Notes: a model not told the origin generated them from the letters alone. A stretch of DNA of 64,000 bases from Spirulina sp. (GCA_044070495.1 JBIPSI010000012.1:32001-96000), one strand, 5' to 3'. Counted from the first letter of the stretch, positions 23,646 to 23,924 are shown. Made by a program: numbers and translations.

Positions 23646-23924
23646 TCACCAAAGCAACGTGCCTCGAATTACGCCACCTTTGTTGGCTTGTCTTAAGGGA
23701 CTCAATTCGGCTTGAAATTCTTCTCGAAGTCGAACATGTGGTGTTGTTGAATACTCCCTCCCACTATCTACTTGAGTAACAACCTTAGTAAAAGCGTCAA
23801 ACATACCGCCTCGGATGTCACCTTGAGTAGTTTCGGGCATTTCTTCCCAGAGATGGCTATTTTGGCTTTGCGGATGCTTGAAGTTTTGAGGTTTAATTAC
23901 CGAGTTTTTGCAGAAAAATTTCAT
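23646..23924 (-). CDS. Double-glycine leader peptide P7 (core begins like phycocyanin beta)
   Basis: ...LWEEMPETTQGDIRGG | MFDAFTKVVTQVDSGREY...GGVIRGTLLW. Confidence 0.75.
   Translation of the reverse strand: MKFFCKNSVIKPQNFKHPQSQNSHLWEEMPETTQGDIRGGMFDAFTKVVTQVDSGREYSTTPHVRLREEFQAELSPLRQANKGGVIRGTLLW

Follow-up and report, generated by a model that had tools for sequence, protein, structure and literature searches.

A window of 64,000 nucleotides from Spirulina sp. (GCA_044070495.1, JBIPSI010000012.1:32001-96000; coordinates below are counted from its first letter) carries on its minus strand P7, a gene for a double-glycine-leader peptide of 92 residues (23646..23924). Judged from its sequence, P7 is a real gene under selection which encodes a small peptide with predicted export, and the part of the product behind the leader, the core, opens with a look-alike of the N-terminus of the phycocyanin beta subunit (CpcB). 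It belongs to a rare and apparently undescribed family of mosaic exported peptides, whose modules resemble the CpcB N-terminus, the coiled coil and the C-terminus of a porin, the loop and the C-terminus of the ATP synthase c-subunit, the Fx loops of PsaA and PsaB, the EF-Tu N-terminus, the C-terminus of an M50 protease, and the HExxH motif of DUF4157. We regard as evenly balanced the proposal that P7 would be a selected, exported mosaic peptide working as a molecular mimic of such conserved segments.

A phycocyanin-like N-terminus behind the P7 leader

The P7 open reading frame (ORF) starts with the ATG at 23924, upstream of which lies an AAGGA Shine-Dalgarno-like motif, and stops at 23646-23648. 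The frame is open further to a TTG at 23951; the ortholog at locus L024, in an Elainellales metagenome-assembled genome (G098), starts at the position equivalent to the ATG at 23924. The leader (residues 1–40; 23805..23924, minus strand) ends with ...PETTQGDIRGG, and in an alignment with the leaders of P1, P2 and P3 from the same cluster and of a Thainema homolog (P0003, locus L023) the PETTQ motif, the Ile at position -4 and the Gly-Gly pair are conserved. Double-glycine leaders typically carry hydrophobic residues at positions -4, -7, -12 and -15, as is known from work on ComA and LahT. Read from the sequence, the Ile at -4, the Met at -12 and the Trp at -15 of P7 match this pattern and the Gln at -7 does not, the paralogs being alike. 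With Gly-Gly at residues 39–40, P7 has a leader in the range of about 15–40 residues ending in Gly-Gly (or Gly-Ala or Gly-Ser), as do the homologs and eight further neighbouring ORFs on the same strand. We infer that cleavage follows Gly40, at a junction which translates as ...GDIRGG followed by MFDAFTKVVTQVDSGREY...; the core behind the 40-residue leader is MFDAFTKVVTQVDSGREYSTTPHVRLREEFQAELSPLRQANKGGVIRGTLLW.

The CpcB look-alike comprises residues 41–58 (23751..23804, minus strand). The initial annotation, made from the DNA sequence alone, had placed a phycocyanin-beta N-terminus at 23751-23804, exactly behind the Gly-Gly site; the codons it quoted (GGC GGT ATG TTT GAC GCT ...) are correct and are located on the minus strand, and the interval coincides exactly with residues 41–58. 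The same placement was found in each CpcB-type peptide, with Met directly following Gly-Gly in 4/4 (P7, its L024 ortholog, P0003/L023 from Thainema, and P0014). A profile built on nine different CpcB N-termini was run against the complete set of 154,177 six-frame ORFs in the genome. CpcB itself ranked first (E value 1.6e-14), P7 ranked second (E value 5.9e-6) with an alignment beginning at Met41, and the third match had an E value of 0.77. The annotation was to be given up if no significant match to beta-subunit N-termini existed; with the E value obtained for P7, such a match therefore exists. Against the 21,563 long ORFs of the genome, the best score of the P7 core was attained by none of 100 shuffles, the margin being narrow (36.3 vs 35.4 bits). 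Among PDB sequences, C-phycocyanin beta chains made up 8 of the 10 best matches and aligned their residue 1 with Met41, each match being weak (E values 0.35–1.9). Based on these comparisons, the CpcB likeness of P7 exceeds chance.

Phycobiliprotein domains are matched 12 times in the genome, and its own phycocyanin beta gene (C10:98024-98623) begins with MFDAYTKVVSQADARGDF. The P7 18-mer shares 10/18 residues with this CpcB and 13/18 with the CpcB of two other cyanobacteria (L014, L015), including an exact match over the first nine residues. Residues 41–58 thus resemble residues 1–18 of a PF00502 protein, Met included, but the likeness is limited to this one segment. A phycobiliprotein beta subunit contains a globin-like domain of about 160–170 residues with a bilin-binding Cys region, whereas P7, at 92 residues, lacks this domain and copies residues 1–18 only.

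A word-indexed search of 5.8 billion proteins at near length returned P7 itself alone, and a phmmer search of 1.84 billion representatives gave three matches with an E value of 1e-3 or less, i.e., P7, P0002 and P0003 (E value 6e-4). P0002 was rejected as a relative, being a 1418-residue repeat protein whose E value of 1.4e-10 is summed from weak matches over 12 stretches. In P0003, a peptide of 58 residues, a leader akin to that of P7 (...PETAQSRIQGG) precedes MFDAFTKVVVQADARGEF and a stop, and the peptide has 15/18 identity (E value 2.3e-5) with the CpcB of the Spirulina genome. It corresponds to locus L023 of a Thainema metagenome-assembled genome (G206), where a true stop stands behind the CpcB 18-mer. 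An alignment search of the 5.8 billion proteins added P0014, from a 9.26-Mb contig, which reads ...ETTQGG followed by MFDAFTKVVSQADAR... and has 14/15 identity with the same CpcB. A degenerate DNA pattern for Gly-Gly plus MFDAFTKVV detected two loci in contigs representing one genome per species (L023 and L024) and none in metagenome contigs. L024 is a syntenic cluster, and its P7 ortholog at 5887-6165 is 88% identical over 92 residues. At L023, the HlyD gene (4653-4895, minus strand) is merely an N-terminal fragment of 80 residues beside the peptides; the contig ends approximately 200 bases past the CpcB-type peptide, and no exporter was seen on it.

Among 401 sampled genomes of the class, a leader together with a CpcB match was found only in the present genome (G000), G098 and G206. 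G110 (L028) was rejected as a fourth case, its match being a cpcB cut by the contig end. Type-A peptides occur in seven of the 401 genomes, strongly in four of them, and P7 was present in 0/60 relatives, 36 of which belong to the same genus. The own CpcB of the three producers is without the MFDAFTKVV of the peptide, reading MFDAY in G000 and MLDAFAKVV in G098 and G206. Self-protection by means of a divergent own CpcB was considered without a conclusion, as G417, which has no CpcB-type peptide, also reads MLDAFAKVV and the G000 form appears genus-wide; the difference may reflect lineage history only.

Selection on a mosaic of copied segments

Between P7 and its L024 ortholog there are 13 synonymous and 12 nonsynonymous differences, corresponding to a ratio of nonsynonymous to synonymous rates (dN/dS) of 0.22 and a synonymous excess with a binomial p of 7e-4. 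The 18 CpcB-like codons carry two synonymous and no nonsynonymous changes, and the adjacent protease gene has a dN/dS of 0.15 in the same comparison. Codon identity was then compared in 16 module/source pairs, each against the source gene of the producer itself, with independent draws from the codon usage of the genome as the expectation. The same codon was used in 62 of 169 identical residues, compared with 69.7 expected from independent codon choice; in the c-subunit tail of G206, for example, 10/10 residues and 3/10 codons are identical. Recent capture or gene conversion from host genes was rejected on these counts. Because amino acid identity is high while codon identity is at the random level, it must be selection on the peptide that maintains the resemblance. 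This selection at the protein level, which the codon counts indicate, provides the chief support for mimicry and the chief objection to debris as well as to recent capture.

The initial annotation had offered two interpretations of the junction, functional mimicry or capture from the 5′ end of a gene. The former is supported indirectly, by purifying selection and by amino acids which are kept without their codons. The latter is not supported for the present cpcB of this genome, which begins MFDAY... and is identical to the P7 segment at 38/54 nucleotides, no DNA trace of any source gene being left. An ancient capture of a cpcB 5′ end is possible.

The remainder of the P7 core, beyond the single module that the initial annotation had recognised, consists of a linker and two further look-alikes. 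The linker STTPHV (residues 59–64; 23733..23750, minus strand) was compared with an ORF from G417 (...STTPGTLRATFRA...KRLQDEFASEL), with the porin C-terminus (...VVRATFRF), and with PDB 4yjj_B (...YLTTDQI), and could be left over from a C-terminal module of porin type or from residues 19–21 of CpcB. Residues 65–78 (23691..23732, minus strand) resemble the periplasmic coiled coil of an SLH-OprB porin, with 11/14 identity to the genome's own porin (C37:47512-48699). The identity of this porin was assigned by Pfam OprB/SLH, and the copied motif follows its SLH domain. Residues 78–91 (23652..23693, minus strand) resemble the loop and helix 2 of the ATP synthase c-subunit (RQ....G.IRGTLL), with 9/14 identity to residues 41–54 of the genome's own AtpH, identified by PF00137. 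The motif IRGT plus three hydrophobic residues is found in only four six-frame ORFs of the genome, i.e., P6, P7, AtpH and one 30-residue frame. Thainema encodes the modules for CpcB, porin coil and HExxH as three separate double-glycine peptides in the same order, the porin-coil peptide being 18/20 identical to porin (E value 2e-6). With the modules separate in Thainema, P7 is therefore a fusion form.

The likeness to housekeeping proteins was assessed for 27 cores of the family against the long ORFs of the genome with 100 shuffles each. In 16/27 the best match was attained by 0/100 shuffles, and the sources of these 16 are all CpcB, PsaA/B, EF-Tu, AtpH, porin, M50 or DUF4157. From the window, 4/9 cores are among them (P7, P6, P3 and P1); P2, Pa, P5, P4 and P0 were not significant. 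P7 shows with three modules the features proposed for the family, namely a best match to a conserved segment of an unrelated essential protein which scores above shuffles, and amino acid identity without codon identity.

Proposed mimicry and its alternatives

In the reading that we favour, a C39-type ATP-binding cassette (ABC) exporter would, together with a HlyD adaptor, remove the 40 leader residues behind Gly39-Gly40 and export a product of 52 residues. Its first residue would be Met41, so that the N-terminus would read as native phycocyanin beta, a protein which retains Met1. In phycobiliproteins the alpha and beta subunits meet through their N-terminal helices, and the natural partner of the P7 N-terminal module would be the phycocyanin alpha subunit (CpcA). 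Further assembly interfaces are the Fx loops, the c-ring and the porin coiled coil. The peptides would be molecular mimics, competing with each genuine segment for its usual binder. As the amino acids are kept and the codons randomised, the peptides have therefore most likely been selected to look like their sources. The version we tentatively prefer, while rating it somewhat below even probability, is that of bacteriocin-like interfering or decoy peptides acting on other cyanobacteria, with a presumed target, uptake and effect. That the family constitutes a new class, in which selected copies of ultra-conserved segments, often with native termini, are concatenated and would poison assembly in competitors as sequence-specific interfering peptides, is a possibility that we hold doubtful. 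In that case each module would vie with its source segment for the latter's partner, such as CpcA, the Fx site, the c-ring, the trimer of the porin or the machinery of outer-membrane assembly. A predicted complex of the genome's own CpcA with the P7 core (residues 41–92) had a score of 0.00, which is no answer; it was made without controls and weighs neither way.

Several observations weigh against mimicry. Besides the narrow margin over shuffles, neither Pfam PF00502 nor the NCBIfam whole-family models match P7, its CpcB likeness is the weakest among the CpcB-type peptides, and positions 50, 52 and 54–56 are unlike every CpcB seen. The CpcB match reaches an E value of only 0.14 when P7 is compared with its own genome by tblastn. 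The 27 tested cores include orthologs and paralogs and hence are not independent. The data fall short of copying by every module, as no source was found for three of the nine window cores (P4, P5 and P0) and Pa and P2 are weak alone. The CpcB, EF-Tu and Fx-loop sources are cytoplasmic, and an exported peptide would therefore need an uptake route, of which there is no sign here. No immunity gene was recognised in the cluster, and the sequencing runs that hold the locus are DNA metagenomes only, no RNA run being listed.

A chance likeness of a short hydrophobic stretch to CpcB would account for a match which spans merely 18 residues and for the modest E values of P7 alone in large searches (0.35 in the PDB and 0.14 in its own genome). 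It is refuted, and its probability negligible, by the profile alignment (E value 5.9e-6) that starts exactly on Met41, by homologs with 15/18 and 14/15 identity to this genome's CpcB, and by at least seven other source proteins which show the same copying in the family. Slightly less remote, though very improbable and largely refuted, is evolutionary debris, i.e., gene pieces pasted by recombination into ORFs whose function is unrelated to the resemblance. The modules have indeed been shuffled, being three separate genes in Thainema, fused in P7 and P6 here, and part of an ORF of 158 residues without a typical leader in G417, and P6 of L024 has lost its HExxH end. However, debris is not expected to show a dN/dS of 0.22 and no nonsynonymous change in the CpcB module, nor a junction that recurs in more distant genomes and assemblies. 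Moreover, residue 5 is different in the own cpcB, whose DNA is only 38/54 identical, and codon identity to the sources is random in spite of high amino acid identity, which requires long-term selection.

The data do not separate interference from signalling or from a matrix role, and we place them in that order. As signal mimics, the peptides would imitate fragments of abundant proteins freed by lysis or turnover and stimulate or antagonise a sensor, giving a false or amplified damage cue. Enterococcal pheromones are cut from lipoprotein signal peptides and have plasmid-encoded inhibitor mimics, and DegS senses the C-termini of outer-membrane proteins, so that precedents exist. The position of the copies suits this idea. 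Source N-termini stand at the mature N-terminus in all CpcB-type (4) and EF-Tu-type (3) peptides, with P0019 beginning at EF-Tu residue 2, while copies of the M50 C-terminus stand at the peptide C-terminus in 7/7 and that of the porin C-terminus in 1/1 double-glycine peptides. The source proteins are abundant, and an AraC regulator is predicted to be co-transcribed with the exporter. Yet no receptor was identified, internal segments (Fx loops, coiled coil, HExxH) are copied too, and the c-subunit tail frequently lies inside the peptide (P1, P3, P0008-P0013), and we judge signal mimicry rather unlikely. We give still less credence to adhesion or matrix peptides like EbfG1-4, whose hydrophobic modules would self-assemble or stick to a surface with an incidental likeness to housekeeping proteins. 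A hydrophobic stretch opens many cores, the flanks in the window contain an exosortase, glycosyltransferases and an EAL/receiver protein, and biofilm development is the sole function shown for C39-exported cyanobacterial peptides with a double-glycine motif (PMC4997328). This explanation fails to account for amino acid identity to CpcB, EF-Tu, Fx loops and porin coil in the face of codon drift, and for cores which consist of the polar CpcB 18-mer alone.

The export machinery and the leader type of the P7 family are known (PMC3140520, PMC4997328), and the new element is the cores copying housekeeping segments. The double-glycine bacteriocin clusters of cyanobacteria (Wang, Fewer and Sivonen, 2011; PMC3140520) likewise combine tandem short double-glycine-leader precursors with a C39-ABC transporter and a HlyD-type adaptor. 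Photosystem, phycocyanin, subtilisin, PatA, serine protease and peptidase S8 are nowhere mentioned in the main text of that paper, and cores that copy housekeeping proteins are not described there. EbfG1-4 of Synechococcus elongatus PCC 7942, exported by the C39 transporter PteB, are also small proteins with a double-glycine motif, and their role in biofilm development is the only one assigned by experiment to such cyanobacterial peptides; ATP synthase, phycocyanin and elongation factor do not occur in the article (PMC4997328). No sequence relation of EbfG to P7 was found, EbfG being absent from the protein-database matches of the P7 and family searches. No description of housekeeping-segment copies as cores was found in the full-text literature searched, some subscription journals being outside its scope. 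CTB family bacteriocins (NF038167; cut-off 32 bits) gave no match with P7 and 13.9 bits with P4. No Pfam or NCBIfam model of a PatE-like cyanobactin precursor matched P7; other cyanobactin genes were not searched for.

Precursors of the NHLP and Nif11 types, cleaved at Gly-Gly and exported by C39 transporters, reportedly have a leader descended from an enzyme family (Haft and co-workers, 2010). There the enzyme likeness lies in the leader, whereas in the P7 family the likeness lies in the core, and neither P7 nor its neighbours had an NCBIfam match to NHLP or Nif11. Darobactin mimics a beta-strand at BamA, and pheromones are imitated by inhibitor peptides of enterococci; both employ single short motifs with known receptors. 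P7 shares with them a dedicated small gene and an exported peptide resembling a piece of a housekeeping protein; unlike them, the present family copies and concatenates many sources, with no modification enzymes evident and no receptor identified.

To our knowledge, hundreds of genes for cyanobacterial double-glycine peptides have been recognised and almost none has a known function. The cores of the P7 family can be read, since they copy the best conserved parts of proteins from photosynthesis, translation, the ATP synthase and the outer membrane. If mimicry is true, they would represent a natural form of dominant-negative or interfering peptide and a novel principle of antagonism or signalling among microbes. 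A mining rule would follow, i.e., comparison of cores with the conserved proteome plus shuffled controls, and each ready-made peptide would come with an obvious candidate partner, which makes the question directly testable with synthetic peptides and supernatants.

Neighbouring peptides, exporter and surroundings

The other double-glycine-leader peptides of the cluster are likewise encoded on the minus strand. Pa (23408..23614) has a core with a weak likeness to a PsaB helix fragment (..PWAHE..LA), its score being attained by 4/200 shuffles; the likeness is clearer in a homolog from G063 (0/200). P6 (24021..24284) combines the c-subunit loop (EIRGTILL) with a PsaA Fx loop, in which Cys is changed to Ser or Val, and the HELTH motif of DUF4157. 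It matches Pfam PsaA_PsaB (E value 1.2e-5) and eCIS_core (E value 0.0031) and has 16/24 identity with PsaA (E value 1e-6; 0/100 shuffles); the P6 of L024 is without the HExxH end. Both cluster-binding Cys residues are replaced in the PsaA Fx-loop copies of P6, P0023, P0030 and P0035 (FPSDGPGRGGTV..), and they are kept in the PsaB-type copies of P1, L024 and P0008. P1 (25367..25564) joins the c-subunit C-terminus (VLLFANPFA) to a PsaB Fx loop (E value 1.9e-5; 0/100 shuffles), and its ortholog in L024 has 19/21 identity with PsaB (E value 4.5e-10). P3 (24862..25047; 0/100 shuffles) carries the c-subunit C-terminus (LLFANPFA) and, at its own C-terminus, that of an M50 protease. In six-frame translation, the genome has the LLFANPF motif nowhere but in P1, in P3 and at the C-terminus of AtpH. 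Several database peptides copy only the last 9–10 residues of subunit c, and a peptide of G129 ends with the 16 C-terminal residues of porin.

The core of P2 (25119..25274) begins with an EF-Tu look-alike. Its best match in the genome is EF-Tu residues 3–16 (7/14 identical; E value 0.10), which is weak alone and attained by 14/100 shuffles. It is backed by P0019, with 15/17 identity to EF-Tu (0/100 shuffles) and a start at residue 2, the native N-terminus of EF-Tu once Met is removed. No core source was found by the shuffle test for P5 (24340..24540; not significant) or P0 (25968..26147), nor by Pfam, NCBIfam and the shuffle test for P4 (24576..24854), in which a Transketolase_N hint is faint (E value 0.061). 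The P5 and P4 types are conserved elsewhere, as P0036 on 41 contigs and P0026 on 38 contigs, respectively. The 158-residue ORF of G417 (L065 4521-4997, minus strand) is composed of a c-subunit loop, a stretch like the porin C-terminus and a porin coil, without a typical double-glycine leader, and adjoins a protease gene with 68% identity and an AraC gene.

The export genes flank the peptides. The peptidase-containing ABC exporter (27368..29515, plus strand) unites C39, ABC membrane and ABC ATPase domains (Pfam Peptidase_C39, E value 3.9e-36; NCBIfam TIGR01193, E value 9.4e-115, below its cut-off) and includes the Cys motif ...EEDCGAACL.... Its start is overlapped by the stop of an AraC-family regulator (26472..27371, plus strand; Pfam HTH_18, E value 5e-25). 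The HlyD-family periplasmic adaptor lies at 19168..20535 on the minus strand (Pfam HlyD_3, E value 1.9e-17; TIGR01843, E value 1.2e-53, below its cut-off). P7 thus has an adjacent C39-ABC transporter with the catalytic Cys and a HlyD adaptor.

A subtilisin-like protease of the PatA/PatG family, with S8, PatG_D and PatG_C domains, is encoded at 21432..23363 on the minus strand (TIGR03895, 736 bits; cut-off 421). It was set aside as a second P7-processing enzyme, as its homologs adjoin Cys-rich MKLPIQ.. peptides and Thainema is without it at E values of 1e-60 or less. A small ORF follows the protease here (21088-21363, minus strand), and such proteases in four other genomes precede small MKLPIQ../MRIPMQ.. 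ORFs with Cys-rich tails (L065 860-1072 and 1276-1509; L068 11320-11538 and 11860-12081; L069 10007-10183 and 10469-10669; L070 10775-10945). These ORFs may form a separate unnamed family of precursors for the PatA/PatG-type protease, which probably serves the downstream MKLPIQ-type peptide and not the double-glycine peptides.

The peptide island of approximately 10.5 kb (19120-29582) is 83–89% identical to the L024 cluster, whereas the L024 flanks match other contigs of the present genome at 68–79%, the two genomes being placed in different families. At the protein level, CpcB is 73% identical between the two and the protease 90%. This gives the cluster the look of a transferred island, and the block from HlyD to the exporter has probably moved horizontally. 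The flanks (11946-18957 and 30144-33406) encode a glycosyltransferase-EAL-receiver fusion, DUF4114 and DUF218 proteins, an exosortase (EpsH) and several glycosyltransferases, and are an exopolysaccharide or cell-surface neighbourhood.

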